From NCBI GenBank assembly GCA_947590905.1, contig CANQCU010000004.1:16591-80590 (forward strand): DNA of 64,000 nt, given 5' to 3'. The notes below the pieces were generated by a model. It saw nothing but the letters and a program-made list of their open reading frames with translations. It did not search any database and was not told where the DNA came from. The position numbers and the translations under genes are program-made. The stretch is from an uncultured Clostridia bacterium (GTDB lineage Bacteria; Bacillota; Clostridia; TANB77; CAG-508). Of the stretch, positions 7,611 to 42,742 are shown piece after piece. Each line of letters begins with the position of its first letter. Position 1 is the stretch's first letter.

Positions 7611-9850
7611 ATGAAATTTGATGAATGGAATGGTTTTCAAAGTGGTAAATGGCAAAATGAAATTGATGTTAGAAATTTTATTCAAGCTAATTATACTCCA
7701 TATGAAGGAGATTCTTCTTTCTTAGCTGGACCTACTGAGAAAACTAAAAAGTTATGGAATGAAGTTTTAGATTTGTACTCAAAAGAAAAAAATTCTGAAG
7801 GAGGAGTTTTAGATATTGATACTAAAACAATCTCTACTATCTCTTCTCATAAAGCTGGATATATTGATAAAGAACTTGAACAAATTGTAGGTCTTCAAAC
7901 AGATGCACCTTTAAAAAGAGCTATTATGCCTTTTGGTGGTATAAGAATTGTTGAAAAATCTTGTGAAGCTTACGGTAAAAAGGTAGATCCTGAAACAGAA
8001 GCAATTTTCCACGGAGTTAGAAAAACGCATAACGACGGTGTTTTTGATGCATATACTCCGGATATCCGTGCTGCAAGAAGTTCACATTTAATTACAGGCC
8101 TTCCTGATGGTTATGGTCGTGGAAGAATTATTGGAGATTACAGACGTATTCCTCTTTATGGTGTAGATAGCTTGATTGAAGAAAGAAAACACGTTTTAGA
8201 TTTATTAGATAGAGATGAATTTACAGAAGAATTAGTTAGAGAAAGAGAAGAATTTGCAGAGCAAATTAGAGCTTTAGAAGCATTAAAAGTTATGGCTTCT
8301 AAGTATGATTTTGATATCTCTAAACCAGCAAGTAATGCTAGAGAAGCTGTTCAATGGTTATACTTTGGATATCTTGCAGCTATAAAAGATCAAAACGGTG
8401 CTGCAATGAGTCTTGGTAGAACTTCTACTTTCTTAGATATTTATTTTGAAAGAGATTTAAAAAATGGTGTTTTAACTGAGGAAGAAGTTCAAGAAATAGT
8501 TGATCACTTTATTATGAAATTAAGAATGGTTAGATTTTTAAGAACTCCTGAATATAACGAGTTATTTAGTGGAGACCCAGTTTGGGTAACTGAAAGTATT
8601 GGTGGTATGGGAATTGATGGTAGAACATTAGTTACAAAGAATTCATTTAGAGTTCTTCATACTCTTGAAAATTTAGGTCCTGCACCTGAGCCAAATTTAA
8701 CTGTCCTTTGGTCAACAAGATTACCTAGAGGATTTAAAGAATATACTACAAATCTTTCTATCAAAACTTCTTCTATACAATATGAGAATGACGATTTAAT
8801 GAGAAGGTTCTGGGGAGATGATTACGGAATTGCTTGCTGTGTATCTGCTATGCGTATTGGTAAACAAATGCAATTCTTTGGTGCTCGTGCAAATCTCGCT
8901 AAAACACTTCTTTATGCAATTAATGGTGGTAGAGATGAAAAGAGTGGAAAACAAATAACACCTAAGTTTGCACCTATTACTTCTGAATACTTAGATTATA
9001 ACGAAGTTATGGACAAGTTTGACAATATGATGAACTATGTCGCAAAAATTTATATTAAAGCTTTAAATGCTATTCACTTTATGCATGATAAATATTCTTA
9101 TGAAGCAATCGAAATGGCTCTTCATGATGAAGATATTTTAAGAACTATGGCTTGTGGTATAGCTGGTCTTTCTGTTGTTGCAGATTCACTTTCAGCTATT
9201 AAATATGCCAAAGTTAAGGTTATTCGTGACGAAACAGGTCTTGCTGTTGATTATAAAATTGAAGGTGATTTTCCAAAGTACGGTAATGATGATGATAGAG
9301 TTGACCAAATTGCTGTTGATATAATTAAATCTTTTATTGGTAAATTACAAAAACATCAAACTTACAAACATTCTAAACAGACTTTATCAATTCTTACTAT
9401 AACTTCTAATGTTGTTTATGGTAAGGCAACTGGAAGCACTCCTGATGGAAGGAAAGCTGGAGAACCTTTTGGTCCTGGTGCTAACCCTCTTCATGGAAGA
9501 GATACTAATGGTGCTCTTGCTGTTATGAATACTATTGCAAAGCTTCCTTATGAATATGCACAAGATGGTATTTCATATACTTTCTCAATAACACCTAAGG
9601 CTCTTGGTAAAGATGATTCTTCAAGAGTTAATAACTTAGTAAGTATGCTTGACCGGTTTCTTTGCACAAGACCGGACATCATATAAATGTAAATGTTTTT
9701 GATAGAAGTTTATTATTAGATGCTATGGAGCATCCTGAGAAATATCCTCAACTTACTATAAGAGTTTCTGGATATGCTGTAAATTTTGTTAAGTTAACTC
9801 GTGAGCAACAACTTGATGTTATTAATAGAACTATTCATGAGAAAATATAA
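7611..9850 (+). CDS. pflB: formate C-acetyltransferase (pyruvate formate-lyase); glycyl-radical domain displaced to another frame by two 1-nt insertions at about 9653 and 9672
   Basis: A 691-aa PFL body is followed by a 62-aa ORF carrying the glycyl-radical motif RVSGYAV. Removing the C in 'gac[c]ggtttc' and in 'gac[c]ggacat' gives the continuous …[17 protein letters not shown]…. Confidence 0.85.
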
Positions 9851-9866
9851 AAATATATCTTAATAA

Positions 9867-9992
9867 AGTGTATATATCTCTAATTTTTTTCGCACCTTGT
9901 TGTCGCAACCGAAAAAATTTTCAAAGTAGGTTGCTCCATTCGCGCTTCGCTTGATCGCTACGCGGTGCTATAAAAATTAGAGATAATACACT
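9867..9992. repeat. GC-rich palindromic intergenic element (24-bp AT-rich terminal inverted repeats around a nested GCACC…GGTGC / GCAACC…GGTTGC core); first copy of a two-copy family (second copy at 41090-41170)
   Basis: aaagtgtatatatctctaattttt … aaaaattagagataatacacttt flank a core that shares GTTGCTCCAT-TCGC-CTTCGCT…TGATCGCTACGC with 41108-41160. Confidence 0.6.
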
Positions 9993-10056: not shown

Positions 10057-10884
10057 ATGGATGCAAATGATAGTTTAAGAGTTCATTCTTTTGAAAGTTT
10101 TGGTACTGTTGATGGTCCTGGTATAAGATATGTTATATTTCTTCAGGGATGTCATCTAAGATGCAAGTATTGCCAAAATAGGGATACTTGGGAAGAAAAT
10201 ACTGGAAATATTATTCCTATATCCGAAGTTGTTCAAACTATTTTGAAGTATCAAAGTTATATTAAGCCTTCTGGCGGAGGTGTTACTGTTTCTGGTGGAG
10301 AACCTTTGCTTCAAACTAGAGCTTTGATTTCTCTATTTAAGGAATTAAAAAAGTATGATATTAATACTGCAATAGATACTTCTGGTATGTTTAGTTTGAC
10401 TGATGAAGTAAAGGAATTAATTGATTTAACTGATTTGTTTTTACTTGATATTAAACATATTGTTCCTGCTAAGTCAAAGGAGCTTGTTGGCTTTTCGAAT
10501 GAGCTTGAAATTGAATTTGCAAAATATTTAAGTGATATAGGAAAACCTATGTGGATAAGGCAGGTCTTAGTTCCAGGATATACTGATTCCGAAGAAGATT
10601 TGCTTAAGTTAAAGGATTTTCTTTCTACTTTAAAGACTGTTCAAAAGGTAGAAATTTTACCTTATCATGATTTAGGTAAATTTAAATGGGAAAATTTAGG
10701 TCTTAAATATCCTTTATTTGATACAAGAACTGCTACTCAGGAAGATTTTGAAAGAGCTAAAAATATTTTACGGAATTTAATGTATAGATATAATCTTGAA
10801 ATTTTATGTATACTGTGTTATAATAGGTTTCAACCTATTGTAGGTTTTAAACCATTTTTCATTTATAGGAATTGGTTATTTTAA
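10057..10884 (+). CDS. pflA: pyruvate formate-lyase activating enzyme (radical SAM); the native last 3 codons are replaced by a 37-residue tail read from inserted DNA
   Basis: CxxxCxxC radical-SAM motif (CHLRCKYCQN) and the GGGVTVSGGEPLLQ motif. The native 3' end (…AKNILRNLGLD*) survives as a displaced copy at 11473-11601. Confidence 0.85.
   Translation: MDANDSLRVHSFESFGTVDGPGIRYVIFLQGCHLRCKYCQNRDTWEENTGNIIPISEVVQTILKYQSYIKPSGGGVTVSGGEPLLQTRALISLFKELKKYDINTAIDTSGMFSLTDEVKELIDLTDLFLLDIKHIVPAKSKELVGFSNELEIEFAKYLSDIGKPMWIRQVLVPGYTDSEEDLLKLKDFLSTLKTVQKVEILPYHDLGKFKWENLGLKYPLFDTRTATQEDFERAKNILRNLMYRYNLEILCILCYNRFQPIVGFKPFFIYRNWLF
10663..10779. repeat. 117-bp direct repeat, copy 1 (3' end of pflA); copy 2 at 11473-11589, about 91 % identical
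   Basis: Sequence alignment of tatcatgatttaggtaaat…aatattttacggaattta. The two copies bracket a 693-bp higher-GC insert. Confidence 0.8.
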
Positions 10885-10920
10885 GTCCCAAAGTTAGCAA
10901 AAAAAGATTGGAGGAAACTT

Positions 10921-11325
10921 TTGATGTTCAAGTATTACCTTAGAAGTTCATTTCCAACTTATGCGGGTCCGAGATCTAATAATATGTTTATTCGCTACAA
11001 GCGGATAGACCCAAATGACATTCCGCGCGATGTAACTTCCGGCGTTGCAAACCCCGAAATAGCTAGGGTTCTCTCTAATATTTTGGGCTTTGAGGTTCAC
11101 GCAGAACGGCTCGTAATAGCTCCTAGCAATGATAGCATTGTCTATGTAGCTAAATATACTGGGCCTAAAATTCCTAAGGGTGCAACTGCTGTTCCTTCTA
11201 GTGGTTATTTTGAATTCTTTGAAGTAACCACCAGAAAAGTCCATTGCTACAATTGTGGTGATTTTCCCACTCACTGCACTAACTGTAGTCATAGGCGGTG
11301 GTTTGCTGGGCAGAATCCTAACTAA
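10921..11325 (+). CDS. hypothetical Cys-rich protein (CxxC-x7-CxxC) encoded on a higher-GC foreign cassette
   Basis: A GGAGG ribosome-binding site precedes TTG/ATG, and an intrinsic terminator follows at 11355-11400. GC is about 45 % against about 27 % nearby. No family recognised. Confidence 0.3.
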   Translation: MMFKYYLRSSFPTYAGPRSNNMFIRYKRIDPNDIPRDVTSGVANPEIARVLSNILGFEVHAERLVIAPSNDSIVYVAKYTGPKIPKGATAVPSSGYFEFFEVTTRKVHCYNCGDFPTHCTNCSHRRWFAGQNPN

Positions 11326-11354
11326 TAGGCAAGAATCTTTACTAACTTTGGGCA

Positions 11355-11400
11355 AAATGAACCTACTTTGAGAAAATCAAAGTGGGTTCATTTTTTGTGT
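11355..11400 (+). terminator. intrinsic terminator (gaacctactttga-gaaaat-caaagtgggttc followed by TTTTTT)
   Basis: Hairpin with a T-tract immediately downstream of ORF 10921-11325. Confidence 0.5.
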
Positions 11401-11402
11401 AA

Positions 11403-11473
11403 TAGTAAATAATTAGATTTAATGCAAACATAGCAGTTATAATATAAATCCATTTTGATATTTTAATATCTTT
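11403..11473. repeat. 71-bp exact copy of an internal coding segment (21806-21876) of the GT-C membrane protein gene
   Basis: tagtaaataattagatttaatgcaaacatagcagttataatataaatccattttgatattttaatatcttt is identical at both loci. Confidence 0.85.
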
Positions 11474-11589
11474 ATCATGATTTAGGTAAATTCAATTGGA
11501 AAAATTTAGATCTTAAATATCCTTTATTTGATACAAGAACTGCAACTCAAGAGGGTTTTGAAAGGGCTAAAAATATTTTACGGAATTTA
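11473..11589. repeat. 117-bp direct repeat, copy 2 (displaced native pflA 3' end; the stop codon lies at 11599-11601)
   Basis: See the copy at 10663-10779. Confidence 0.8.
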
Positions 11590-11654: not shown

Positions 11655-11686
11655 TGCCCCCTCTTGAATAAAGTCAAGAGGGGGTA
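11655..11686. terminator. strong GC-stem intrinsic terminator (ctgccccctcttga-ataaag-tcaagagggggtag)
   Basis: 13-bp perfect stem lying downstream of hisS (-) and of the pflA remnant (+). Confidence 0.7.
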
Positions 11687-11739: not shown

Positions 11740-13059
11740 TCATAAATTGATAAATTTTCTTATACCTTCGTAATCAGTAAGGCAGAACTTGTACACATTT
11801 CCAGTATACATATTTTTCAATTGAATGGTATTACTCTGAAGCTCGTTTTCACCGATTACAATGACATATGGAATATTCATCTTATTAGCAAAATTCATGC
11901 TTTTTTTCAACTTCTGAACCCTTTTTTCCATCTCCGTTATCACTCCAACAGCTCTCATATTGGATACGAACTTAAACGTTTCAGCCTCTGTATTCATAGG
12001 AATTACATATAAGTCGACAGTAGCTACTTTTTTGTTGGATTCCTTTAAGATCAGAACTTCATAAATGACATCCAAACCAAATGACATTCCAACGGCAGGA
12101 TACTCATTTCCATCATCAACAAAACTTGTGATAATTTTATCGTATCTACCACCGCCACCGATACTCAAATTGAATTCCTGACTTCCAACTTTTCTGTCTT
12201 TGAGAAAAATTTCCCAGACAGTTCCTGTATAGATGTCAATACCTCTTGCTAAGTACGGTGCGAATCTCATACATGCGAGAGCCTCTGTTCCTTCGAGATA
12301 CCGATAAAGTTCATCTACTTCAGCCAGTCCTTCATTTACCAGTTCATTATCGTAGGATGCCATCTTTTCTCTAAGAGCCGTATAATCCAAACTTAAAATC
12401 TCTTTCAAAATTTTAACTTTAGACTTTTCAATTCCAATTGCCTCAAACTCTGTCAACAGCTCATCCTCTGTAAGTTTAGCAAACTTGTCAATCAACATAA
12501 TTGATTTCCTTAAAATATTTTCAGGAATTTCGCCAAAAACGCAGAAGATAATACCGCTTAAGAGTTTTCTGTTGTTGAACTCAATTTCAATGTCCAACCC
12601 AAGTTTCTTATAGACATCGTTTGTCATCATCATGTATTCAGCCTCAGCTAGAATACTTTTTACTCCAACAACATCAACATCACATTGCGTGAATTCCCTG
12701 TTTCTACCTACTTTAACTGGTCCATCTCTGAATACCTTGCCTATTTCATACCGTTTGAAAGGTAGGATAATATTAGGATTTGAGCTAATCAATTTTGAAA
12801 AAGTGATTGTCAAATCATATCTTAGTCCTAACTCTCTTCTCCCCTGATCGCTCAACTTGTAAGTTTCATTGAGAATATCAGCACCCTCTGAATATTTAGA
12901 TGCTAACAAGTCAAACTTACAGAGAATTGGCGTTTCCACAGGTGCAAAGCCGTATTTTATAAACTCGCTTTGCAAAACTGTTTTGATTCTTTCCCGAATA
13001 ATCTGTTTTTCGGGCAAGTAATCATATGTGCCTTTTAGGTTTTCAAAGTTTCTGCCCAT
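11740..13059 (-). CDS. hisS: histidine--tRNA ligase (class IIa) with C-terminal anticodon-binding domain
   Basis: HisRS motifs 1-3 (…GTYDYLPEKQ…, FKRYEIGKVFRDGPVKVGRNREFTQCD, GGGGRYD) plus the anticodon-binding domain. GC is about 38 %, higher than the flanks. Confidence 0.85.
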   Translation of the reverse strand: MGRNFENLKGTYDYLPEKQIIRERIKTVLQSEFIKYGFAPVETPILCKFDLLASKYSEGADILNETYKLSDQGRRELGLRYDLTITFSKLISSNPNIILPFKRYEIGKVFRDGPVKVGRNREFTQCDVDVVGVKSILAEAEYMMMTNDVYKKLGLDIEIEFNNRKLLSGIIFCVFGEIPENILRKSIMLIDKFAKLTEDELLTEFEAIGIEKSKVKILKEILSLDYTALREKMASYDNELVNEGLAEVDELYRYLEGTEALACMRFAPYLARGIDIYTGTVWEIFLKDRKVGSQEFNLSIGGGGRYDKIITSFVDDGNEYPAVGMSFGLDVIYEVLILKESNKKVATVDLYVIPMNTEAETFKFVSNMRAVGVITEMEKRVQKLKKSMNFANKMNIPYVIVIGENELQSNTIQLKNMYTGNVYKFCLTDYEGIRKFINL

Positions 13060-13134
13060 GATTATTACTCCTTTCTGAAAATCTTGAGAAATTTTATTAA
13101 AATTTCTCTATGTTATGAACAGCCTTACGCCCAT

Positions 13135-13163
13135 ATTATACAGCATTTCGAGGTTTCTGTCAA
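13135..13163 (-). promoter_or_regulatory. consensus sigma-A promoter of hisS (TTGACA, 17-nt spacer, TATAAT); no T-box leader present
   Basis: The reverse complement reads ttgacagaaacctcgaaatgctgtataat. Only about 100 nt of leader lie before the start codon, and there is no T-box (AATTAGGGTGGNACCGCG) motif. Confidence 0.55.
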
Positions 13164-13202
13164 TCTTATTTACATAATTTGTTGTCTAAAGATGTTGTAT
13201 TT

Positions 13203-14489
13203 TTACAAAACAATTGAATTTATATCATTTCTAAAATATAGATCATTCATATCTATGATATTAAAGTCATCTATAAGTTGTTTCTTTATATCTTCAAAAT
13301 TAGAACCGATTCTTCTTAATTCAAAAACTCTACCTCCAGATGGATATAATCTACCCTCTCGTTCTACTATATGTTCGCCTATAATTTCAGTATCTTGTGC
13401 TATTTTTTCTAAATTCATAATAGGTTCATTATAAATCTTTCTTTCTGTTTCTGGATATCCTGACGAAAAACCGCACATAGCAATAGATATTTTGTCTTTC
13501 ATCCAAAAATCCTGTATTTCATCAATATTGTTATAAAATGAATTAAACACTTCTATTAAAGGTATATCTAATAGGCCTAATAAAGCTATCCATTCTGGAT
13601 TTCCTGTTCTAGTATTATATTCCAAAACATATGGTTTGCCTTCTTCTGTAATCATTACTCCTATATATAATATATAATTATATTCAATTTGTTCATTTTC
13701 AAAGCCCTTTATTGTTGGTTCTATAATATCGTTCTTTAATCTTTTTAATAGTTTAGCAGGATATTTTTTAGATTCTGCAACCGATGCTGTACCAGCTGTC
13801 ATCGGTCCTTCATCATTAGGATATTTTCTTTTATAATCTTGTACCATTGGCATAATACTATATTTATTATTATTTATAAGTACATGTAGTGAAAGTTCAT
13901 GTCCTTTTATTTTTTCTTCTATTATAAGTTTAGCATTTGGCGTAGAATTAAATAATCTATAAATACTATTCTTTGCATCCTCTAAATCTTTCGGTACTGC
14001 TGTTCTTGCATATGAATTTTTTGAAAATTGCTCTACTTTTAATACATATCCATTTTTAGTCTTATTCCAATTTTTACTAATAAATCTAATTGCTTGTTCT
14101 TCATTTTGGGCAACATAATAATCAGGAGTAGGAATATTGTTTCTTTTCATAAATGCTTTTGAATATTCTTTGCTTGTTTCTAATCTTGCAACATCTTTTG
14201 AAATTCCAAAGACTTTATATCCTTTTGCTCTAAATAGTTCTGTTGCTCCTTTAGCAAGATCTGCTCTGTTACTTATAATTACTAAATCTGGTTTAAATGA
14301 GTTTGCGAATTTTATTGCTTCTTCAATATTTCTTACTCTATATACATTGTTATATTGTTTTTCCATTAAGGCATTTTCATTTTGTATTAATGAGCAAATT
14401 TCTATGTTAGGAGATTTCATTAGAGCTACATGATTTGCATGATCTCTTCCATTTCCTAATCCATATAATAATATTTTTTTATGTTTCAT
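13203..14489 (-). CDS. PurD-like ATP-grasp ligase (divergent phosphoribosylamine--glycine ligase homologue)
   Basis: Collinear with PurD: LLYGLGNGRDHANHVALMKSP against [21 protein letters not shown]; …FRAKGYKVFGISKDVARLETSKEYSKAFMKRNNIPTP; EYNTRTGNPE; SGGRVFEL. Key PurD substrate-loop residues diverge. It lies outside any pur operon. Confidence 0.6.
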   Translation of the reverse strand: MKHKKILLYGLGNGRDHANHVALMKSPNIEICSLIQNENALMEKQYNNVYRVRNIEEAIKFANSFKPDLVIISNRADLAKGATELFRAKGYKVFGISKDVARLETSKEYSKAFMKRNNIPTPDYYVAQNEEQAIRFISKNWNKTKNGYVLKVEQFSKNSYARTAVPKDLEDAKNSIYRLFNSTPNAKLIIEEKIKGHELSLHVLINNNKYSIMPMVQDYKRKYPNDEGPMTAGTASVAESKKYPAKLLKRLKNDIIEPTIKGFENEQIEYNYILYIGVMITEEGKPYVLEYNTRTGNPEWIALLGLLDIPLIEVFNSFYNNIDEIQDFWMKDKISIAMCGFSSGYPETERKIYNEPIMNLEKIAQDTEIIGEHIVEREGRLYPSGGRVFELRRIGSNFEDIKKQLIDDFNIIDMNDLYFRNDINSIVL

Positions 14490-14491
14490 TA

Positions 14492-15439
14492 TTAGTTCTC
14501 CTTTATAAAAGGTGGATATTCCTCATCTAACCATATAACTGGTGGTCCGTTTTTTAATTCTTCCTCATTTCTAATATATAAACCATCAAAATATCTTTTC
14601 TTTCCATCTGTTAAATCAATATGAAAAATTATTGGTAATGTTATTTCCTCTGGTTCAATAAAATCAGTAGGTTTTGCTATTTTTATGTATTCTACTTTAA
14701 AATATTTTAATGGCTCTTTTGTCAAACTTTTTTCAATCACTTCTTTGACTTTCTTTGCATTAGTCTCTCCAGATAATATTGCCTTTCTTCCTTCTTCACA
14801 TGCATCACTTAATCTTCTAAATTCTTTTATCTTCTTTTCTGGTAAATTCATTAATCTTGAGGATATTGCAATTCCACTTTTATACCTTACAGTTGGAACT
14901 TCTCTTACTATAATATCATCTTGAAACAAGTCCTTCAATGCTCGTTCAACCAAGATTACTTGTCCTATGTCTTTTAATCCCCAATAAGTCCTTGTTGGTC
15001 TTGTAAATAATATCCATCGAACACTCATTGTGATCATCCCCTTAAATAAATAAGGAACAGCAACTCCATTAAGTCTTTGATAGCATTCCCCTTGATCTAA
15101 ATATGTTCTAAAATCTTCTGGATATATTTCTTCTGTTTTAGGGCATATAATGTGAGTTGCTCCATGCTCTTCTGCAAATTTACAATCCTTATTAATATCA
15201 TATTCATAAGTTGAACCTGGAGCTAATTGAGCTACATTTGGATATATACTAATTACTGTACAATCATTTTCTTTTGCAGATAGTTCTATTAATTTGCCAT
15301 GTCCAATATGTAATGCACCCAAAGTATGTATAGAACCAATTGTTTTTCCTTGTTTGTGTAATTCTTTTAATCCTTCTTTAGCCTCTTCTAAAGAATTCCA
15401 TATAATTGCTGACATAATAATTTCACCTTTCTTCTTCAT
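14492..15439 (-). CDS. PanC-like ligase (pantoate--beta-alanine ligase family, divergent, with C-terminal extension)
   Basis: HIGH-type nucleotidyltransferase motif TLGALHIGHGKL, plus VISIYPNVAQL and IAISSR like PanC. The strongly conserved PanC segment GHFRGV…FGEKDxQQ is replaced. Confidence 0.55.
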   Translation of the reverse strand: MKKKGEIIMSAIIWNSLEEAKEGLKELHKQGKTIGSIHTLGALHIGHGKLIELSAKENDCTVISIYPNVAQLAPGSTYEYDINKDCKFAEEHGATHIICPKTEEIYPEDFRTYLDQGECYQRLNGVAVPYLFKGMITMSVRWILFTRPTRTYWGLKDIGQVILVERALKDLFQDDIIVREVPTVRYKSGIAISSRLMNLPEKKIKEFRRLSDACEEGRKAILSGETNAKKVKEVIEKSLTKEPLKYFKVEYIKIAKPTDFIEPEEITLPIIFHIDLTDGKKRYFDGLYIRNEEELKNGPPVIWLDEEYPPFIKEN

Positions 15440-16700
15440 CTTTTTCTGGATTTACATATATTCTTTTGTTCGGAGACCCTATTATTATGTTATCACTTGA
15501 ATTCAATGACTTAATTTTTATATCTTGTCCATTTTCTTCATTGCATCCTAATATTACTATATGTGTATAATCATCTTTTATCTTTTTTATTGCTTTTCCA
15601 ATATTTTTTATATTTCCTTTATATGCTACATTTTCTCCCATATTCTCTAACGCTTTTATAACTTTCAATACAAAATTTGGTGAGGCATCTATATTACATA
15701 TAGCAATTTTCCTTTTTATATCTTCTGTTAGTTTTAGTGGACTATTTCTTTCTATCGCTTCTACTCCTGATGCAACACTCCAAAAATTTTTTATTTTTTC
15801 ATTCCATCTTCTTGCATATCTTGTATATTCTCCTCCATCTCCTAAAGCAATTCCATCTAAAGTTCTAAATCGTAAAAGATATGTATCTATTGTTTCGATA
15901 CTATGTAAGTCTGTTGGATCAAAATATATATCAACACCTGTAATATAATTCAAACCTTCAGCCATTTTATATAATTTCATATATTCTTCTGGTAAATTCA
16001 GATTATTTTCTTTTTTATATTTAAGACTTATTATTCTTGGTTCTTGACTAAATAAATCTATTAATTCATTACATCTTCCTTCATCTTTTATTAATTGTTG
16101 AAATATTTGTATTCGTTCATCCCTTGAAGAAAATTGTAGTGTATGCAATAATTGTGCCAACTCATTTTCAGATACATATTTACTCAAAATATTTCTTAAA
16201 GCGCCATAATCATTAATATGTATTTTGGTTTTTATACCATTTGCGTCAAATAAATCTGTCATAGATTTTGCAAGCTGTATTAGATTAATATCTAAACTTT
16301 CATCCTCAGACGGTTTTTCATTAATAATTGAATACCCCAATTGTGTAAAATGTCTCGAATGACTATTTCTGTATCTAAATAATGGTGCTACAAATGCTAT
16401 CCTCTGTGATTCACCATTGCTATTTGTTACATAATTTCTAAATACAGATGGTGTTGAATCACATGATAGAATAAGTGCTTTTCCAGATTTGCTATTTAAA
16501 GTATAAACCTTATCTTTTGCTGTATTTGCCCCTCTAATAAATGTTGAACTATATCCAAGTGGAGAATATTTTTTTAATGTGCATCCTATTTTTTCTCCAC
16601 ATTTAGCATGAAAATCTAATATTCTTCTTTCTCTCTTTATCCATTCTTCTTCTCTGTCATACATTCCATGAGGTAATCGCAAATATTCTTCATAACTCAT
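15423..16700 (-). CDS. HisRS-catalytic-core-like protein (class II aaRS / HisZ-like paralog, no anticodon-binding domain)
   Basis: Motif-2-like FVAPLFRYRNSHSRHFTQLG and motif-3-like GDGGEYTRY. It lacks the HisRS C-terminal domain. Confidence 0.5.
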   Translation of the reverse strand: MSYEEYLRLPHGMYDREEEWIKRERRILDFHAKCGEKIGCTLKKYSPLGYSSTFIRGANTAKDKVYTLNSKSGKALILSCDSTPSVFRNYVTNSNGESQRIAFVAPLFRYRNSHSRHFTQLGYSIINEKPSEDESLDINLIQLAKSMTDLFDANGIKTKIHINDYGALRNILSKYVSENELAQLLHTLQFSSRDERIQIFQQLIKDEGRCNELIDLFSQEPRIISLKYKKENNLNLPEEYMKLYKMAEGLNYITGVDIYFDPTDLHSIETIDTYLLRFRTLDGIALGDGGEYTRYARRWNEKIKNFWSVASGVEAIERNSPLKLTEDIKRKIAICNIDASPNFVLKVIKALENMGENVAYKGNIKNIGKAIKKIKDDYTHIVILGCNEENGQDIKIKSLNSSDNIIIGSPNKRIYVNPEKDEEER

Positions 16701-16721
16701 TTATTTTCCTCTTTTCTCTAT

Positions 16722-17753
16722 TTAGGCATTTACCTCTATTGTTGATTTTTTTTCTTGTTCATTGCCATCAGATTTTCCATTTCTTTTTTGTATGTAAGAC
16801 ATTATAATTGCTACAATTATACATGCTCCTGCAACATATTTTCTCATATTTCCCATTGTCGTCCACAATCCCATAACACCCATAGGAATAACCCAATTCC
16901 ATACTGCAATAGCCAAAAGTGAAATAATTGTTCCCCACTTTTTATTAGCAATTTTTTGAATACTTACTATTGCAGCATCTGCTGTTGATAGAGCAACACA
17001 TAAAACAACAAAAATTAATATTGCATTCATTATTCCATTAAACTTAAACTTTGCAAGAACTCCTATGAAAGCCATATAAATAGCAAATAGCACTCCTGCT
17101 AAATAATGTGCTTTCATTTTTTTCTCTTTCTTTAACTTTTCTGCCATCTGCCAATTTTGTATACACATAATTGGTCCTGAAAATAGTATAAAGCATGAAT
17201 TTAAAGCCCAGAATATCTCACTTTGGTTCGTATAATTCACAATATCATATGTTTCTACATTTCCAACAAAACCACATATTATCAAAATAATAAGTAATAA
17301 ATAGCATAAAATCCATAGAGGATTATCTATAAAAATACTTTTTATTAGTCCATTCTTATATAATGCCACTGTCATAAAGAATATAATAGTAACTGATACA
17401 ATTTTAGATGCTATTTCTGTCATAAATGATAAATTGCATAAATATTGATATATAGCATTTAGTTGAATCCATAGACAAAATATACTAACTATAGTTGTAA
17501 AAATCATAACAATTTTGGAATTTACTACCCTTTCTAAATTCGGTATTCTATAGGCTATAAAACCAAATAATGGTATTGCTAATGAATTTGCTAATGCCCA
17601 GATTACAAATGGTATTATTCCTTTGGTTTGCATTGTTTCCATTCCTACTACTAAAGACGTTCCCCAAGCCCAACTAGCAGCTAGAGACATTGCATAAAAT
17701 AAAGTTGAATTTTTCTTTAACATGTTTTTCATAATTTCTATCATTCCTTCCAT
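16722..17753 (-). CDS. polytopic membrane transporter (about 10 TM), family unassigned
   Basis: Hydrophobicity pattern of the 343-aa translation. Confidence 0.4.
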   Translation of the reverse strand: MEGMIEIMKNMLKKNSTLFYAMSLAASWAWGTSLVVGMETMQTKGIIPFVIWALANSLAIPLFGFIAYRIPNLERVVNSKIVMIFTTIVSIFCLWIQLNAIYQYLCNLSFMTEIASKIVSVTIIFFMTVALYKNGLIKSIFIDNPLWILCYLLLIILIICGFVGNVETYDIVNYTNQSEIFWALNSCFILFSGPIMCIQNWQMAEKLKKEKKMKAHYLAGVLFAIYMAFIGVLAKFKFNGIMNAILIFVVLCVALSTADAAIVSIQKIANKKWGTIISLLAIAVWNWVIPMGVMGLWTTMGNMRKYVAGACIIVAIIMSYIQKRNGKSDGNEQEKKSTIEVNA

Positions 17754-17761
17754 TTTTTTAA

Positions 17762-18760
17762 TTAATTTTTAATATTTATAGAAATTTTTTTATCATTTGC
17801 AATTATATTAGCCTCTCCTCCTATCGGAAAAGTAAAAATCGGAGTAGTATGACCAATATCAGCATTAATTATAATTGGAATATTTTTTAATTGTTTTTTT
17901 GTATCAATGATTTCCTTCCATTTTTCTTTATTCATTTCTGAAATACTTTCTGCTCTTCCTATTACTATTCCATTTATTTTCTTACCTTTTGCAGAATGTA
18001 ATAACGATTGAAGATTTCTATCAAATTCATTTATGAATACTTTATCCGTTTCCCCATCATCTTCTATAAATAATATTGAATTACTTAAATCAGGCATATA
18101 TTCAGTTCCTTGTAGCAAATTTAATGTGCAAAGATTTCCACCTATAATTTTTCCAGTTCCACTTCCATACTGTATTGCTTCCATTCCTTTATTATTTATA
18201 AATTTTCTATCTTCCTGATTTTTCATCCATTTATCATTACTCCATAATTTTGAAGATTTAATTTCTATTTTTTCTTCTTCTATAAAAATTTTCTTAAAAT
18301 ATTCTATTGTATATTCTAAACCATATTTCATACCAAAACTAAAAAATTGTGGACCCGAATATGTTATTAAACCAGTTTTAGAATATATCGCATTAACTAA
18401 GGCTGTGTTATCAGAAAATCCACATATAATTTTAGGATTATTTTTAATCAAGTCATAATCAATGTAATCTAACAATTGATTTACATTATATCCACCAATA
18501 GCAGTAAGTATTGCTTTAACGCTTCTATCTTTAAAAGCATCATGCAAATCTTCTATTCTTTCATTTATAGTTGCACATTTTAAATCATTATTCGAAATTT
18601 TTAATGAATTTTTCCCAAATGTAACTTTAAATCCTATTTCTTCCAATCTTGCTTTTGCTAAATTAACTATATCATCTTTCAGAATAGCCATGCTTCTTGA
18701 TGGAGCAATAATTCTAATTTCATCACCTTTATTTAATTTTGATGGAATTATCTTTTTCAT
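17762..18760 (-). CDS. S66-family serine peptidase (LD-carboxypeptidase LdcA / microcin-C immunity MccF family)
   Basis: Nucleophile motif GFSDNTAL and C-terminal GHTTPIFTFPIGG. LdcA and MccF cannot be told apart from sequence alone. Confidence 0.65.
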   Translation of the reverse strand: MKKIIPSKLNKGDEIRIIAPSRSMAILKDDIVNLAKARLEEIGFKVTFGKNSLKISNNDLKCATINERIEDLHDAFKDRSVKAILTAIGGYNVNQLLDYIDYDLIKNNPKIICGFSDNTALVNAIYSKTGLITYSGPQFFSFGMKYGLEYTIEYFKKIFIEEEKIEIKSSKLWSNDKWMKNQEDRKFINNKGMEAIQYGSGTGKIIGGNLCTLNLLQGTEYMPDLSNSILFIEDDGETDKVFINEFDRNLQSLLHSAKGKKINGIVIGRAESISEMNKEKWKEIIDTKKQLKNIPIIINADIGHTTPIFTFPIGGEANIIANDKKISINIKN

Positions 18761-18905
18761 TTTTCAACAATTCCTTTCGTTTAATATAAAAACATTTATA
18801 TTATATCACCACTTCTTCTTTTATGTCAACTTTTTAGTCGAATATGTTGTGATTTTGCCTCATTTTTATAAATTCACATTAGCCTCATTTTTTATAAATT
18901 TACTA

Positions 18906-18957
18906 TTGTATGTATTATATATTTGTGATATAATGTGTCAAATGCTAGACAGCATTT
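18906..18957 (+). promoter_or_regulatory. promoter (TTGTAT, 17-nt spacer, TATAAT) with an operator-like perfect palindrome AAATGCT-agac-AGCATTT abutting the -10, upstream of the GNAT gene
   Basis: Hexamers at 18906-18911 and 18929-18934. The 7-4-7 inverted repeat sits at 18940-18957. Confidence 0.4.
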
Positions 18958-18982
18958 AATCTTTATGAAAGGACAGATTACA

Positions 18983-19507
18983 ATGAAAAACCAGCAAAAC
19001 ATTCGGCCGTCTGTGAGTTTTGAAGATTTTGCGAAAATTTTCAAAGTTTTTGAATCTTTTCCATTCTTTGAATCTTGGACAGACAAAGAAATTTTGGAAG
19101 AGTATAACTCTTTCCAAAATGGTGGAATTATCTTTGGATATTTCACCGATGAGGGTAAGTGTGTAGGAATCCTGACCATGAAGCCTTATGAGCCTGGCAA
19201 ACACCCTGTAGAATATCCTAGCGATGCTAAGGTTATGTACCTCTCTGATGTCGCTACTCTTTTTGAGTATCGGAATATGGGCATTGCAACTAGTTTGTTC
19301 GAATATGCTATTCGACATTTCCAGGTCCTGGGATATGATTATATCTATCTTAGGACCAATGAAAAAAACTCTATGTCCTATGACATAGCTAAAAAGTGTG
19401 GCTTTGTCCGTCTTTACGATATTATTCAGGAAGTGGAGAGAAAAAGAGCTAATGGTACAATTACGAAGGACGCTAGAATCTTCATGGAGAAGAAATTATC
19501 AAAATAA
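18983..19507 (+). CDS. GNAT-family N-acetyltransferase, higher-GC gene
   Basis: Acetyl-CoA binding motif YRNMGIATSLF. GC is about 40 %. The start is chosen at MKNQQNIRP, which has an upstream ribosome-binding site. Confidence 0.6.
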   Translation: MKNQQNIRPSVSFEDFAKIFKVFESFPFFESWTDKEILEEYNSFQNGGIIFGYFTDEGKCVGILTMKPYEPGKHPVEYPSDAKVMYLSDVATLFEYRNMGIATSLFEYAIRHFQVLGYDYIYLRTNEKNSMSYDIAKKCGFVRLYDIIQEVERKRANGTITKDARIFMEKKLSK

Positions 19508-19550
19508 TCTGCTCAGTTTCATTACTGCGCTTAAGCAGTATATGGACATC

Positions 19551-19583
19551 TTAAAAGGTCATTTTAGAGAATTCTAAAATGAC
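19551..19583. terminator. bidirectional intrinsic terminator (aggtcattttagag-aattctaaaatgacct)
   Basis: Inverted repeat between the convergent GNAT and pepD genes. Confidence 0.55.
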
Positions 19584-19586
19584 CTA

Positions 19587-21014
19587 CTATTTTATACATT
19601 CTAATAATTTAATTATAAAATTCCACATTTTATTAGCTGATTTTATAGACATTCTCTCACTTGGACTATGTGCATCATAGATATTAGGAGCAATAGCAAT
19701 AAATTGCAAATTAGGTATTTTATCAGCAAAATATCCACATTCTAAGCAAGCTTGAACTCTTACTTTTTTTATTTTTTTATTAAATACTTTTAGATATAAA
19801 CTATCACATGTTCTTATTAATTTTGTATTTTCGTTTTGTTCATATCCTAAAATATATGTATAATCAACAACTTTAACATTACATTGATTCATAAGATTTT
19901 GTATATTTTTTTCTAACTGTTCTCCTAAACTATTTGAATTATATCTAATAGAATATATTAAATATATAGTATTTCCAACTGTTTCAACTGCTGCAAAGTT
20001 TCCTGATAAAATTATATTACCATACTGGTCACTTTCAATTGCTCCATTTTGAAATTCATTAATAAATTTTAATATATTCTGCGTAGTGTGTTTATTATAA
20101 CAGTTTGTTATATTATCTACTTTGTTAAATACTATATCTGCTGTTGGAAATTGTTTTCGTATTTTATTGAGTTCATCTTTTAAAAAAAGTATTTTTTTGT
20201 TTTCATAGTTATTGATAGAAAAAGTTATTTCACAGTTTCTTGGAATAATATTTACTTTACTTCCACCTATAAAATTTGATATGTATATATCTGAAAAATT
20301 ACTTAGCAATTTAGCTATTATCTTTATTGGATTTCCCCTTTTTTTATCGCCTATGTTTAATCCTGAATGTCCACCTTTAAAATGGGATAATTTTAATGAA
20401 TAGCTAGAAATTTTTTCATCATTTAACTCAATTTTTTCATCATTTATTGCTGATTTCCATTCTTTTGCAGTAGCAGAAGATATCCACATTTCATCTTCTC
20501 TAAAATTGTCAAAAGATATTATCTTTTTAGATTTTAAGACTCTTTCGTCAATAGAACTTGCCCCATTCATTGTTGTTTCTTCTTGTGTAGTAAATATACA
20601 TTCTAAAGCAGGTGATTTTATTTTTTCTGAATCAAGAATTGCTAAAATATATGCAATTCCTATTCCGTTATCTGCTCCTAAAGTTGTATTTTCAGCTTTT
20701 ATAAAATCTCCATCTATATTTAAATAAATTGGCTCTTTAGAGAAATCGTGTTCTGAATTTTTTCTCTTTTCACATATCATATCTATATGACATTGTAGTC
20801 CTAATATTTCTTTATATTCGTATCCTTCACTCGCATCTTTCCATATTATTACATTGTGCATTTTGTCTGTATAATATTTCAAGTTTTTATTAATTGCAAA
20901 ATCAATCAAGTACTTAGCAATTTTTTCTTCTTCTCCTGATTTTCTTGGTATTTTACTTATTTCTATAAAATATTTCCAAAATTCCTCATTTAGTAATTTC
21001 ATTTTATCCTCCAA
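19587..21014 (-). CDS. pepD: aminoacyl-histidine (Xaa-His) dipeptidase, M20 family
   Basis: HDFSKEPI, GADNGIGIA, LKGGHSG and CLECGY are collinear with PepD. Confidence 0.7.
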   Translation of the reverse strand: MEDKMKLLNEEFWKYFIEISKIPRKSGEEEKIAKYLIDFAINKNLKYYTDKMHNVIIWKDASEGYEYKEILGLQCHIDMICEKRKNSEHDFSKEPIYLNIDGDFIKAENTTLGADNGIGIAYILAILDSEKIKSPALECIFTTQEETTMNGASSIDERVLKSKKIISFDNFREDEMWISSATAKEWKSAINDEKIELNDEKISSYSLKLSHFKGGHSGLNIGDKKRGNPIKIIAKLLSNFSDIYISNFIGGSKVNIIPRNCEITFSINNYENKKILFLKDELNKIRKQFPTADIVFNKVDNITNCYNKHTTQNILKFINEFQNGAIESDQYGNIILSGNFAAVETVGNTIYLIYSIRYNSNSLGEQLEKNIQNLMNQCNVKVVDYTYILGYEQNENTKLIRTCDSLYLKVFNKKIKKVRVQACLECGYFADKIPNLQFIAIAPNIYDAHSPSERMSIKSANKMWNFIIKLLECIK

Positions 21015-21242
21015 AATAGTATCCTGCTTTTTTCTAAAATAAAAAATGTAAGTTTCTATAACCTACATTTTATTGTTATCACAATATTTTGTAGGCACAC
21101 ATTTAACACTTGTACCTACGATTAAACTTAGGTAACAAGTGTATATTAATGGTGATGTAATTTTAATATTGTGATTAATATCATTTTCTTACCTCTAATA
21201 TATTGTTATTATATTATATTATTTTTATACAGTCAATACTTT

Positions 21243-22943
21243 TTATTGTTTTGGAATAATATGTACCTTCTCTTGTGTCTCATCACTTACATACACATCT
21301 ATTGTTTCCAATCCAATATCTACTTTTTTTGCTCCTTCTATTTTTCCTCCAAAATCTTTTCTTACAATGATTGCTGTGTTTGCTTGTTCTAACTCCAATT
21401 CCTCTTCTTCATAATATTTTTTATAATCACAACTCAATATTCCAAAGAAATAATAATCTTCTAGGGCATAAGCATATACTTTGCTATAATCTCTTTTTAA
21501 GAAATTTGCAAGTTTAATATAATCTGGCATTTTCTTTGTTCCTTGTGCCACTGAGTTAGATAAATATAATGGTTGTGCTAAATTAAATGGCATTATAATT
21601 ATTAGACTTGTAATTAGTATTACTATAAAAGATCCTAATTTTTTTACTACTTTTCCTTCTCTTTTTAAATCTAACCACACTAAAATAATCCCAAACATTA
21701 AAACTATTAGCTTTGTTCCAGCTCCATTTAGTTTCATATTTAATGTTAGTATTGTAAGATATAGATAAGCATCTATTCCGGTTATTTTAGGAGTTGCTTT
21801 TATATAGTAAATAATTAGATTTAATGCAAACATAGCAGTTATAATATAAATCCATTTTGATATTTTAATATCTTTTTCTTCTAATTTTAAAAACATTAGT
21901 ATATATGGAATTGCAAATATTGATAGGTATCTTACACATATTTTGCCTGGAAACATATTGCCTGTTTCCTCTGGGATATAAACTATTGCAGACACTTCAA
22001 TTACTGTAAAAATCATACTTAAAGTTACAAACTTTAAAAATTCTCTATCTTCTTTTTCATACTCTTTGTAATTAAATAAAGGTATTAAAACTGGCAAGAC
22101 CCCAAATGCAGAAATTGAGAATACTAGATATTCAACTATACCATATAGAAAATATCCTATTTTACTGATATTTAATGGAAATATACTCATTATTTGTCTA
22201 TCATAATGATTTACTCCATTTTGAAAATTATTAATTATGTATATTATAAAATATCCTAAAAATATCAAGCTTATAAATGCTATCCCTTGATAAAATATTT
22301 TTTGAATTTCTTTTGAGTTCTTGTCCTTCAAATTTTTAACAAATACACATATGAAATACGCAAATGCAATTACTATTGTATATGATTTTGTGAAAAACAA
22401 TATTGCAAATGCTATTATTATTAATATGTCTCGTTTTATATTCTCTTTTTTTGTGAATTTATTATAAACAAGATATGCTATCCATAGAAAAATTGGATAA
22501 CTAAAATTTTCTTGAATTAGATATGCTCCTGATACCATATCTGGAATTATAAGCATTAATGCTGATATTCCAAGAGCTTTTATTTTGCTTTTAAGTATGT
22601 CCTTTGATAACAGATAAACTGGAATTATGCTTGAGGCCATTGCTATTACGCCAATCATTCTCATTATAAATAAGATATTCTCTGGATTATAGAAAAAATA
22701 TGCTAGCGATAAAATTACTGAATATATTATACAACTGTAATTTAGCACTTGGTATTCTCTTGAAAAATTTCCATTATAAAAAAAAGATCTTGCCATGTTA
22801 ACATATAGGTCTTCATCATTACTTTCATAAATTGGAACTGTCATTCTTCTTGCAATATTTCCATATATCAATATACATAATATGAATAACAGTATAAGGC
22901 ATAGTTTTGTATGTCTTTCTAAGAAATTCTTAATTTGTTTCAT
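21243..22943 (-). CDS. polytopic membrane protein, GT-C-type glycosyltransferase-like (ArnT/PMT-like), putative
   Basis: About 14 TM segments, an N-terminal loop with acidic and aromatic residues, and a C-terminal soluble domain. The assignment is tentative. Confidence 0.4.
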   Translation of the reverse strand: MKQIKNFLERHTKLCLILLFILCILIYGNIARRMTVPIYESNDEDLYVNMARSFFYNGNFSREYQVLNYSCIIYSVILSLAYFFYNPENILFIMRMIGVIAMASSIIPVYLLSKDILKSKIKALGISALMLIIPDMVSGAYLIQENFSYPIFLWIAYLVYNKFTKKENIKRDILIIIAFAILFFTKSYTIVIAFAYFICVFVKNLKDKNSKEIQKIFYQGIAFISLIFLGYFIIYIINNFQNGVNHYDRQIMSIFPLNISKIGYFLYGIVEYLVFSISAFGVLPVLIPLFNYKEYEKEDREFLKFVTLSMIFTVIEVSAIVYIPEETGNMFPGKICVRYLSIFAIPYILMFLKLEEKDIKISKWIYIITAMFALNLIIYYIKATPKITGIDAYLYLTILTLNMKLNGAGTKLIVLMFGIILVWLDLKREGKVVKKLGSFIVILITSLIIIMPFNLAQPLYLSNSVAQGTKKMPDYIKLANFLKRDYSKVYAYALEDYYFFGILSCDYKKYYEEEELELEQANTAIIVRKDFGGKIEGAKKVDIGLETIDVYVSDETQEKVHIIPKQ

Positions 22944-30876: not shown

Positions 30877-30951
30877 TGGCTCGGGCGGTTAGATTCGAAC
30901 TAACGCATGTCGGAGTCAGAGTCCGATGCCTTACCGCTTGGCGACGCCCGA
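30877..30951 (-). tRNA. tRNA-Gln (anticodon CTG), 75 nt with encoded CCA
   Basis: Minus-strand sequence TCGGGCGTCGCCAAGCGGTAAGGCATCGGACTCTGACTCCGACATGCGTTAGTTCGAATCTAACCGCCCGAGCCA. A 7-bp acceptor stem, the Gln-type D-loop AGCGGTAAG, a normal 7-nt anticodon loop CUCUGAC, and the T-loop GTTCGAATC. Confidence 0.85.
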
Positions 30952-42619: not shown

Positions 42620-42639
42620 TAAAAGTCTATTTAAAATAC

Positions 42640-42742
42640 ACTATCATTCAAAGCATATTGCCTTGCCGGTATTAGCACCTTATCTTTCACAGGTTGCTGT
42701 GGGTTCATTAAGCCGGTTCTTTCGCCCACTCTTGATAATGTA
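42640..42742 (-). promoter_or_regulatory. SAM-I (S-box) riboswitch aptamer in the metK leader
   Basis: The minus-strand sequence reads UUAUCAAGAGUGGGCGAAAGAACCGGCUUAAUGAACCCACAGCAACC…GGUGCUAAUACCGGCAAGG…GAAUGAUAG, matching the S-box consensus blocks (UUAUCAAGAG, GGUGCUAA). Confidence 0.8.

Follow-up and report, generated by a model that had tools for sequence, protein, structure and literature searches.

A conserved five-gene operon of gut Clostridia, linked to an atypical histidyl-tRNA synthetase gene, as a candidate source of a histidine-bearing antimetabolite

The stretch of DNA analyzed here (the window) comprises 64,000 nucleotides of contig CANQCU010000004.1 from an uncultured Clostridia bacterium, and the locus in question lies between positions 11740 and 21014. 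Eight open reading frames (ORFs) are found there, all on the minus strand except the one coding for a GNAT acetyltransferase (Table 1). Five of them form an operon in the order S66 peptidase, permease, paralog of histidyl-tRNA synthetase (HisRS-like), PanC-like ligase, and PurD-like ligase, with intergenic gaps of at most 21 nt, and it is followed by an atypical hisS gene, which we call hisS1. An earlier note on this DNA, made from the sequence alone, had listed the same eight ORFs; all are present at the coordinates claimed, and the scores of Pfam and NCBIfam models uphold the families to which the eight proteins had been assigned. The five genes behind one promoter, together with the adjacent hisS, are a conserved unit of ~5.6 kb plus hisS.

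Promoters were identified by a consensus scan only, and shuffled sequences contain on average at least as many promoter-like sites as the region itself; the perfect matches fall exactly within the two intergenic regions, in front of the operon and in front of hisS. The latter is the consensus sigma-A promoter that had been claimed for hisS. Other features described in the earlier note were also recovered, namely, the GC content of hisS (0.357) and GNAT (0.368), higher than that of the ligase genes (0.27 to 0.30), of the other genes together (0.25 to 0.30), and of the window on average (0.29), and the inverted repeat near the GNAT start. A terminator-like hairpin closes the hisS transcription unit, and a bidirectional terminator separates GNAT from PepD.

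Table 1. Positions of the features discussed in the text, in the window and in the loci of relatives (L numbers)
Feature	Sequence	Coordinates	Strand	Remarks
hisS (hisS1)	Window	11740-13059	-	TIGR00442, 315 bits (cutoff 286.75); HGTP_anticodon domain
PurD-like ATP-grasp ligase	Window	13203-14489	-	428 aa; all three GARS domains; TIGR00877, 270 bits (cutoff 288)
PanC-like adenylate-forming ligase	Window	14492-15439	-	315 aa (longest ORF; 307 aa as called elsewhere); TIGR00018, 142 bits (cutoff 212.75)
HisRS-like paralog	Window	15423-16700	-	425 aa; TIGR00442, 72 bits (cutoff 286.75); hisZ model, 49 bits (cutoff 271.65)
Permease	Window	16722-17753	-	~10 transmembrane helices; no Pfam or NCBIfam match
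S66 peptidase	Window	17762-18760	-	332 aa; operon gene 1; Pfam S66 N- and C-domains
GNAT acetyltransferase	Window	18935-19507	+	Generic GNAT family match
PepD-type Xaa-His dipeptidase	Window	19587-21014	-	TIGR01893, 389 bits (cutoff 343.75); own transcription unit
Operon, S66 to PurD-like	Window	13203-18760	-	Five genes
Promoter-like site of the operon	Window	18800-18829	-	TTGACA, 18-nt spacer, TG-extended TATAAT; 12/12
Second promoter-like site	Window	18914-18941		12/12; consensus scan
Promoter of hisS	Window	13135-13163	-	TTGACA-N17-TATAAT; 12/12; consensus scan
hisS leader hairpin	Window	13086-13108	-	Perfect 11-1-11 palindrome GAGAAATTTTA-A-TAAAATTTCTC, just 5' of the ribosome-binding site
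Terminator-like hairpin of hisS	Window	11657-11684	-	Intrinsic-terminator-like; closes the hisS transcription unit
Palindrome near the GNAT start	Window	18941-18958		7-4-7, AAATGCT-AGAC-AGCATTT
Direct repeat, left copy	Window	11402-11476		75 nt; 99% identical to the right copy
Direct repeat, right copy	Window	21804-21878		75 nt; inside a 566-aa membrane glycosyltransferase-like gene
End of pflA	Window	10662-10779		Last 118 nt of the gene
Second copy of the pflA end	Window	11472-11589		92% identity
Segment between the pflA repeats	Window	10780-11401		620 bp; GC content, 0.373
Pyruvate formate-lyase ORF	Window	7611-9686		Stops before the glycyl-radical motif
RVSGYAV in another frame	Window	9640-9900
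tRNA-Gln(CTG)	Window	30877-30951		Ordinary
S-adenosylmethionine (SAM) riboswitch	Window	42638-42741		82 bits; ordinary
his locus	L016	13780-20995
his locus	L028	10001-17529
his locus	L014	5986-17563
Second cluster type	L009	2279-12863		hisS1-type and HisRS-like genes side by side
Second cluster type	L029	1-14193		hisS1-type and HisRS-like genes side by side
tRNA-His(GTG)	L010	7679-7756		Divergent from S66
Split HisRS-like gene	L018	10001-11285		Two ORFs, 162 and 256 aa
Long paralog and 79-aa ORF	L007	10001-11750

The window proteins were mapped onto the loci fetched from relatives (designated by L numbers). The five genes appear in identical order in ~10 loci from metagenome-assembled genomes (MAGs) of gut Clostridia, with Clostridium sp. 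CAG:440 among the organisms that carry them, and the encoded proteins are well conserved (60 to 83% identity for S66 in 9 related loci and 71 to 88% for the permease). The flanks of the operon are otherwise unrelated between loci. It is preceded by a relaxase and an insertion sequence transposase in L016 and by a tRNA-His gene in L010, the closest relative of the window's operon. This tRNA gene is normal looking, having G-1 as well as a promoter and a terminator of its own, and lies 159 bp upstream of S66; it may mark an integration site or a functional association. A defense or catabolic locus was also considered for the operon and was rejected, as no family matches supported it.

The synteny largely refutes the simplest explanation of all, that there is no system and that ordinary divergent purD, panC, hisZ-like, and ldcA genes lie by chance beside a housekeeping hisS. 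Every protein of the cluster does come from a superfamily of primary metabolism, and the window shows one hisS only. Against this, the three ligase-type proteins score under their equivalog cutoffs and carry family-specific changes at canonically invariant positions, and the genes keep their order from locus to locus and even between phyla, with the cognate aminoacyl-tRNA synthetase (aaRS) swapped. We consider such a coincidence very improbable.

The earlier note had asked whether the neighborhood is conserved in relatives, which is the case for the five genes plus hisS but not for GNAT and PepD. In the mapped loci, neither of these two adjoins the operon in any relative outside the window's strain. 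PepD was seen only in contigs of the same strain, and the only relatives of GNAT in these loci are C-terminal portions, each one half, of fusion proteins of 454 aa, located several kilobases off, in which a histidine-racemase-like CntK_N domain is joined to a GNAT domain (41% identity to the latter). We therefore do not count GNAT and PepD in the system; as cluster members both were ruled out by synteny, the membership of GNAT being doubtful, while PepD is probably not part of it. An MccE-like immunity role, as had been suggested for GNAT, is not supported either, since the gene is not conserved and no similarity to MccE is detectable: no MccE or RimL structure was among its matches in the PDB, the best of which was NAA50 (E value of ~0.008).

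This result also weakens the first of two functional readings put forward in that note, in which the cluster would serve the metabolism of a histidine dipeptide or pseudopeptide, with the ligases making a carnosine-like conjugate, PepD hydrolyzing it, and GNAT acetylating it. PepD is a bona fide member of the Xaa-His dipeptidase family, GNAT has relatives among the GNAT halves of the CntK_N fusions in the his loci of related genomes, and all the genes lie inside one 10.4-kb segment bracketed by repeats. However, PepD and GNAT are absent from the vicinity of the operon in the other loci and are separate transcription units with the bidirectional terminator between them. In addition, the same ligase subfamilies are found in clusters of a threonine type (see below), so that the ligases do not vary with the type of amino acid, and this reading leaves no role for the linkage to hisS or for a peptidase of the MccF type. 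We regard it as improbable, although slightly less so than pure coincidence.

Both ligases have diverged from their namesakes in primary metabolism. As the earlier note had proposed, they lie outside pur and pan operons and their substrate segments are altered. PanC-like scores below the TIGR00018 cutoff and PurD-like below the TIGR00877 cutoff, and each family has residues of its own. The PanC-like family is held together by 38 to 93% identity, with a gap to canonical PanC at ~30 to 33%. Its members keep the HxGH and SSR nucleotide-binding motifs, the K-D pair, and two glutamines, which contact pantoate in the PanC of Mycobacterium tuberculosis. The residues of the ATP site are kept, the substrate pocket is remodeled, and about 45 of the ~75 canonically near-invariant columns are replaced, with family-specific changes such as P38H, M40L, RPGHF to VP.LF, KL to RW, SSRN to SSRL, and YPR to Y.Y. 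Together with the PanE-like genes of the larger clusters, this makes a pantoate-like hydroxy-acid donor and an amine acceptor other than beta-alanine plausible as substrates. The PurD-like protein keeps the ATP-grasp lysines, the Mg-binding E-x-N, and the GGR motif, and it has lost the Gly-rich B-loop, with GDPE changed to GNPE and GPNTGGMG to GPMTAGTA. Its derived residues (D16, L41, P122, N297, and G371-E372) are common to histidine- and threonine-type clusters. No pur genes adjoin the PurD-like gene in the window. In comparison with PanC and PurD proper, the window's ligases have the same folds and keep the nucleotide-binding and catalytic residues but replace canonical invariants by residues of their own families.

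The third ligase-type protein, the HisRS-like paralog, belongs to a small family, with 49 clusters at 90% identity among 5.8 billion proteins, all of them from MAGs or metagenomes. It had been described as a catalytic core without an anticodon-binding domain, and this part of the earlier description has to be corrected. A profile built from 15 family members aligns with residues 57 to 411 of the Staphylococcus aureus HisRS, anticodon-binding domain included, with additional matches of the C-terminal part to such domains in another HisRS and in a threonyl-tRNA synthetase (ThrRS). An AlphaFold model made from the family alignment (pLDDT, 80) shows a C-terminal beta-alpha-beta domain and superposes on complete HisRS structures over ~430 columns (Foldseek E value, 1e-21), so the fold is that of a full-length HisRS, with a degenerate, anticodon-binding-like C-terminal domain. 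The paralog fails the cutoffs of both the HisRS and the hisZ models. The Arg and Gln of the motif-2 signature RxFxQ are kept and invariant in the family, but motif 3 has GG(E/K/Q/N/I)Y in place of GGRYD, and RGxDYYT is replaced by an invariant LHS(I/V)ET. In class II synthetases, the gamma-phosphate of ATP is held by the motif-3 Arg, and in HisRS, a catalytic role in adenylation falls to the Arg of RGLDYY. As both arginines are lost, adenylation of histidine in the canonical way is unlikely. Some variation was seen within the family. In L018, the gene is split in two and hisS is not adjacent, which may reflect a pseudogene or a sequencing error. Some paralogs, as in L007, reach 495 to 503 aa through an extra C-terminal extension of ~80 residues, and in that locus, a 79-aa ORF without a family match sits between the paralog and PanC-like.

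The complete synthetase next to the operon is of another kind. hisS1 is nearest to the PRK12420 subtype (482 bits, under the cutoff of 540) and is catalytically complete, with GGGGRYD, ARGIDIYTG, and the anticodon-binding domain all present. It differs from other HisRS in its motif-2 loop, which reads FRDGPVKVGRNREF versus RGE(K/R)PQxGRYREF in the second gene described below and in other HisRS, and it has an insertion ahead of motif 3. Across the loci with the operon, hisS1 is 68 to 88% identical, and the operon is linked to this one atypical hisS type in several genomic contexts. In L010, L011, L015, and L016, the operon is followed by hisS1 downstream of PurD-like; in L013 and L014, hisS1 lies upstream of S66 and the operon sits between hisS1 and hisZ; in the window and in L006, hisS1 accompanies the operon away from any hisZ-hisG pair.

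A canonical hisS (hisS2; TIGR00442, 412 bits), 34% identical to hisS1, is present in L016, L014, and L028 at a distance of a few kilobases, following hisZ-hisG-(fusion)-hisIE. The his locus of these three relatives has the order hisS1, hisZ, hisG, the 454-aa fusion, (hisIE), hisS2, and an M15 D-Ala-D-Ala-dipeptidase-like gene, and encodes only the first steps of histidine biosynthesis. Whether a second hisS, under the control of a T-box, exists elsewhere had been asked in the earlier note. The second gene was found in relatives, but no T-box (RF00230) reached the gathering score, whether in the window or for the two kinds of hisS in 6 related loci. The absence of a T-box in front of hisS1, which the note had pointed out, is thus real, with a leader of only ~70 nt, but it is neither distinctive nor informative, as hisS2 has none either.

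The hisS leader has a conserved architecture of its own. The same promoter arrangement was found upstream of the orthologous hisS in 7 loci, and the leader hairpin is in the same place in L010, L016, L011, L028, L014, and L006, directly 5' of a conserved ribosome-binding region (GATTTTCAGAAAGGAG). The sequences of the stems differ and the pairing is kept, as in GAGAAAUUUU/AAAAUUUCUC, AGAGAAUUA/UAAUUCUCU, and AGAAAGUUCA/UGAACUUUCU. The folding energies of the AT-rich versions are no better than those of shuffled sequences, and the hairpin is also present in L028, where the operon is absent. It may be a small cis-regulatory element.

The association between a degenerate synthetase paralog and a complete synthetase extends well beyond Clostridia. 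In other phyla, the neighborhoods of PanC-like genes are biosynthetic clusters, often flanked by integrases or transposases, with genes for PurD-like, PanE/ApbA ketopantoate-reductase-like, AsnB-like, SHMT-like, B12-radical-SAM, GT4, sulfotransferase, and pentapeptide-repeat proteins. PanC-like and PurD-like occur as a pair outside pur and pan operons (L025, which lacks a PurD-like gene and has an S51 peptidase directly after ThrRS, is the exception), and the pair is the constant core of a family of clusters spanning phyla. What changes is the synthetase: L019, L022, and L027 contain a HisRS-like paralog and a full HisRS, and L024, L025, and L026 contain a ThrRS-like paralog and a full ThrRS. 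Overall, the aaRS type covaries with the amino acid-specific paralog of the cluster, the pairing being for histidine in the window, L006, L009 to L016, L019, L022, L027, and L029 and for threonine in L024 to L026. The ThrRS-like paralogs have likewise lost the motif-3 Arg (GSGLL versus GS.ER). By our rough estimate, with ~20 aaRS genes in 2,000 to 4,000 genes, a cognate aaRS would be expected within a 20-gene neighborhood in less than 1% of cases; it was observed in at least 6 distinct architectures. The sequences of PanC-like and PurD-like do not group by type of amino acid. Given this, and the derived PurD-like residues common to both types, we infer that what the ligases contribute to the product would be constant, with the choice of amino acid left to the aaRS-like paralog.

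The hisS1 and HisRS-like genes were also found side by side in a second type of cluster (L009 and L029), with identities of 60 to 68% and 41 to 49%, respectively. The surrounding genes code for methyltransferases, a carbamoyltransferase, 2 or 3 dCTP-deaminase-like proteins, and a thymidylate-kinase-like protein, to which L009 adds a radical SAM enzyme and L029 adds an adenylation enzyme, a carrier protein, a ketoreductase, and a phosphopantetheinyl transferase. In these nucleoside-type clusters, the two genes thus behave as a portable two-gene module. An analogy with hydrazine synthetases, in which a cupin is combined with an aaRS-like domain, was considered for L019 and L025 and dropped because those enzymes are class I and MetRS-like.

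The first gene of the operon gives another indication of its function. The earlier note had left the S66 peptidase in the LdcA/MccF family as a whole. Both Pfam domains are present, and the sequence places the enzyme in the MccF clade and not with LdcA. Its best solved relatives, at ~60% identity, are the "MccF-like" BA_5613 of Bacillus anthracis (368 bits) and Lmo1638 of Listeria (358 bits), followed by MccF of B. anthracis (160 bits) and of Escherichia coli (140 bits), with LdcA-type enzymes at 50 to 69 bits; on the LdcA model NF008424, it reaches 109 bits, with a cutoff of 378. Our literature search, in which not every journal was represented, yielded no study on the function of BA_5613 or Lmo1638. 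Peptidases of the S66 and S51 families are documented as microcin C resistance enzymes (PMC8323819, PMC9239234), and by homology, we propose that S66 is a self-immunity or processing hydrolase.

For the permease, hydropathy agrees with the ~10 transmembrane helices noted earlier, and no Pfam match was obtained even by scanning 38 members of the family, of which an exhaustive HMMER search found 216 representatives in 1.84 billion proteins. With a profile of these 38 proteins, the sole match was the human sodium-dependent multivitamin transporter SMVT (E value, 1.5e-4), and the match falls exactly on the motifs GGLxxxxxTDxxQ and STxDS, which we take to be signature motifs of the sodium:solute symporter family. 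On the other hand, 13 or 14 helices would be expected of such symporters, and the Pfam SSF match is absent. An AlphaFold model from the single sequence was unusable (pLDDT, 45). The protein may be a short LeuT-fold permease related to the symporters.

Putting these observations together, we give an even chance to the hypothesis that the cluster makes a histidine-bearing (pseudo)nucleotide antimetabolite against HisRS, with hisS1 and S66 as protection. The chemistry of every step, the product itself, the way in which transport runs, and the resistance of hisS1 are inferred in the following scheme. PurD-like and PanC-like would build a constant amide-linked scaffold, likely an N-acyl-ribosylamine phosphate of the glycinamide ribonucleotide type with a pantoate-like hydroxy-acid. 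The HisRS-like paralog would supply the specificity for histidine, either by offering the ligases histidine or histidyl-adenylate (His-AMP) or as a transferase for the histidyl group, and the product would mimic histidyl-adenylate. The permease would carry the product or a precursor across the membrane. S66 would cleave the aminoacyl amide bond of the active compound in the cytoplasm of the producer or mature a pro-form. Finally, hisS1, with its own strong promoter and remodeled motif-2 loop, would keep tRNA-His charged despite the compound and could possibly act as a His-AMP donor, like AbmK in albomycin biosynthesis. The second functional reading of the earlier note, an inhibitor of HisRS, thus survives in part. 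The linkage to hisS1, the presence of hisS2 in relatives, the swap to ThrRS, and the MccF clade of the peptidase favor it, while two of its supports, the MccE-like GNAT and the T-box argument, are lost.

Several observations weigh against an antimetabolite. The 64-kb window contains one hisS only, and the second copy was seen only in relatives. L028 has hisS1 and hisS2 without the operon, and hisS1 is more widespread (>120 clusters at at least 64% identity) than the paralog (49 clusters), so the possession of two hisS genes seems to be in part a trait of the lineage, and the operon may merely have been inserted at a his locus. Where it lacks the operon, hisS1 might serve as an orphan immunity gene, or it might be no more than a second isoform. 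Conversely, L007 and L018 carry the operon without an adjacent hisS. PanC-like is 80 to 95% identical across the gut Clostridia loci, as in a metabolic operon, and the inheritance of the operon within this group looks fairly vertical. Export fits poorly, as the only detectable relatives of the permease, the sodium:solute symporters, are importers. The paralog probably cannot adenylate histidine canonically, and the role that we give to it is a guess.

Some of these points would suit another explanation, that the product is a specialized metabolite or cofactor-like compound and not an aaRS inhibitor. The paralog would still specify the amino acid, the full aaRS would supply the aminoacyl-adenylate or aminoacyl-tRNA or simply be coregulated, the permease would import a pantoate- or pantothenate-like precursor, and S66 would recycle or process the product. 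Consistent with this, the permease shares signature motifs with a symporter family that includes pantothenate carriers, PanC-like keeps the pantoate-contacting glutamines, and PanE/ApbA genes are present in the larger clusters. The good conservation of the operon within one clade of gut Clostridia and the occurrence of hisS1 without it point in the same direction, and there is a precedent for a cluster aaRS that supplies substrate, as AbmK gives seryl-adenylate (PMC8323819). However, the combination of a degenerate paralog and a complete cognate aaRS recurs for both histidine and threonine, the S66 and S51 families of microcin C immunity recur in the clusters, and mobile elements with a patchy spread across phyla are typical of loci that combine a toxin with its immunity. 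A role in supply would also leave the motif-2 loop of hisS1 unexplained. For these reasons, we consider a product of this kind unlikely, although it is the most serious competitor of the antimetabolite.

A broader version of the antimetabolite hypothesis is possible, although we think it less likely than not. The clusters would be modular, cross-phylum systems for antimetabolites directed against aaRS, with a constant PanC-like/PurD-like scaffold, an exchangeable His or Thr paralog, and immunity through the aaRS and MccF or S51 peptidases, and the window's product would be the first natural HisRS inhibitor. To our knowledge, no natural product targeting histidyl-tRNA synthetase is known. In the literature searched, we found no natural HisRS inhibitors, no description of PanC-like/PurD-like clusters, and no HisRS-like biosynthetic enzymes beyond HisZ and GCN2. 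In the table of a 2022 review, there is no functional HisRS duplicate and HisZ is the sole paralog.

If the antimetabolite hypothesis were true, it would provide a new pair of antibiotic target and compound, with hisS1 as a ready resistance marker. It would also mean that PanC and PurD chemistry is newly used in secondary metabolism and that degenerate aaRS paralogs are swappable specificity modules. The gut Clostridia that carry the clusters are uncultured and abundant, so the compound could influence how the gut bacteria of animals and humans compete.

The surroundings of the locus contain some hints of mobility. The 75-nt direct repeats bracket 10.4 kb that include hisS, the operon, GNAT, and PepD, the end of pflA is present in a second copy, and L001, a contig from an independent assembly, stops at these repeats. 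The entire segment with its hisS could have been acquired or rearranged. An island-free arrangement was sought in the metagenome contigs of JGI with a 27-mer from the segment between the pflA repeats, and no match was found. That segment codes for overlapping ORFs of 134 and 135 aa on opposite strands, with no convincing family match. Upstream, the pyruvate formate-lyase ORF stops before the glycyl-radical motif, and RVSGYAV continues in another frame just downstream, which means a frameshift in pflB or an assembly error. A SAM riboswitch and a tRNA-Gln gene in the remainder of the window are both ordinary.

Among known proteins, the closest precedent for the HisRS-like paralog is HisZ, a regulator of HisG, which has the HisRS fold, has been described as lacking adenylation activity (PMC9437257), and lends its recognition of histidine to a partner. 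Unlike HisZ, the paralog has a C-terminal anticodon-binding-like domain and is encoded with PanC-like and PurD-like and not with hisG, which is absent from the window; genuine hisZ and hisG are separate genes elsewhere in the relatives.

Among known aaRS-inhibitor systems, albomycin, a seryl-thionucleoside, offers a parallel for hisS1. Its cluster contains a complete extra synthetase, the insensitive seryl-tRNA synthetase (SerRS) AbmK, which is maybe a donor of seryl-adenylate, and a carbamoyltransferase and a methyltransferase modify the cytosine (PMC8323819). In both cases, a complete extra aaRS accompanies biosynthetic genes and could donate the aminoacyl-adenylate. The carbamoyltransferase, methyltransferase, radical SAM, and nucleotide-modifying genes of L009 and L029 also recall albomycin, a resemblance that concerns enzyme classes only. 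On the other hand, the target would be HisRS and not SerRS, there is no siderophore part, and the window has PanC-like, PurD-like, and the degenerate paralog instead of AbmF, AbmH, and AbmD.

Microcin C, a peptidyl-adenylate inhibitor of aspartyl-tRNA synthetase with immunity through MccF (S66) and MccE (GNAT), resembles the proposed system in the logic of an aminoacyl-nucleotide mimic, in the MccF-clade S66 encoded first in the window's operon, and in the S51 peptidase of L025. It differs in several respects. No ThiF-family match that could correspond to the MccB adenylyltransferase was found among the genes of 11740 to 22943, and no precursor-peptide gene is present among the cluster genes, although no search was aimed at precursor peptides. 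A target-copy aaRS is part of the window's cluster and is lacking from mcc clusters, and the window's GNAT is unlike MccE.

Agrocin 84 is a third case, as the agn cluster for this Trojan-horse inhibitor of leucyl-tRNA synthetase (LeuRS) codes for a second, insensitive LeuRS (AgnB2). According to a review, AgnC1, an aaRS-like protein with remote similarity to prolyl-tRNA synthetase, has been proposed as the attaching enzyme. The other enzymes and the target are different, and agn is plasmid-borne in Rhizobium. The cluster described here would therefore join a known kind, that of albomycin, agrocin 84, and mupirocin, in which aaRS-inhibitor genes come with a copy of the target, here accompanied by an immunity hydrolase, and what would be new is its set of enzymes, the logic of the degenerate paralog, and the target.

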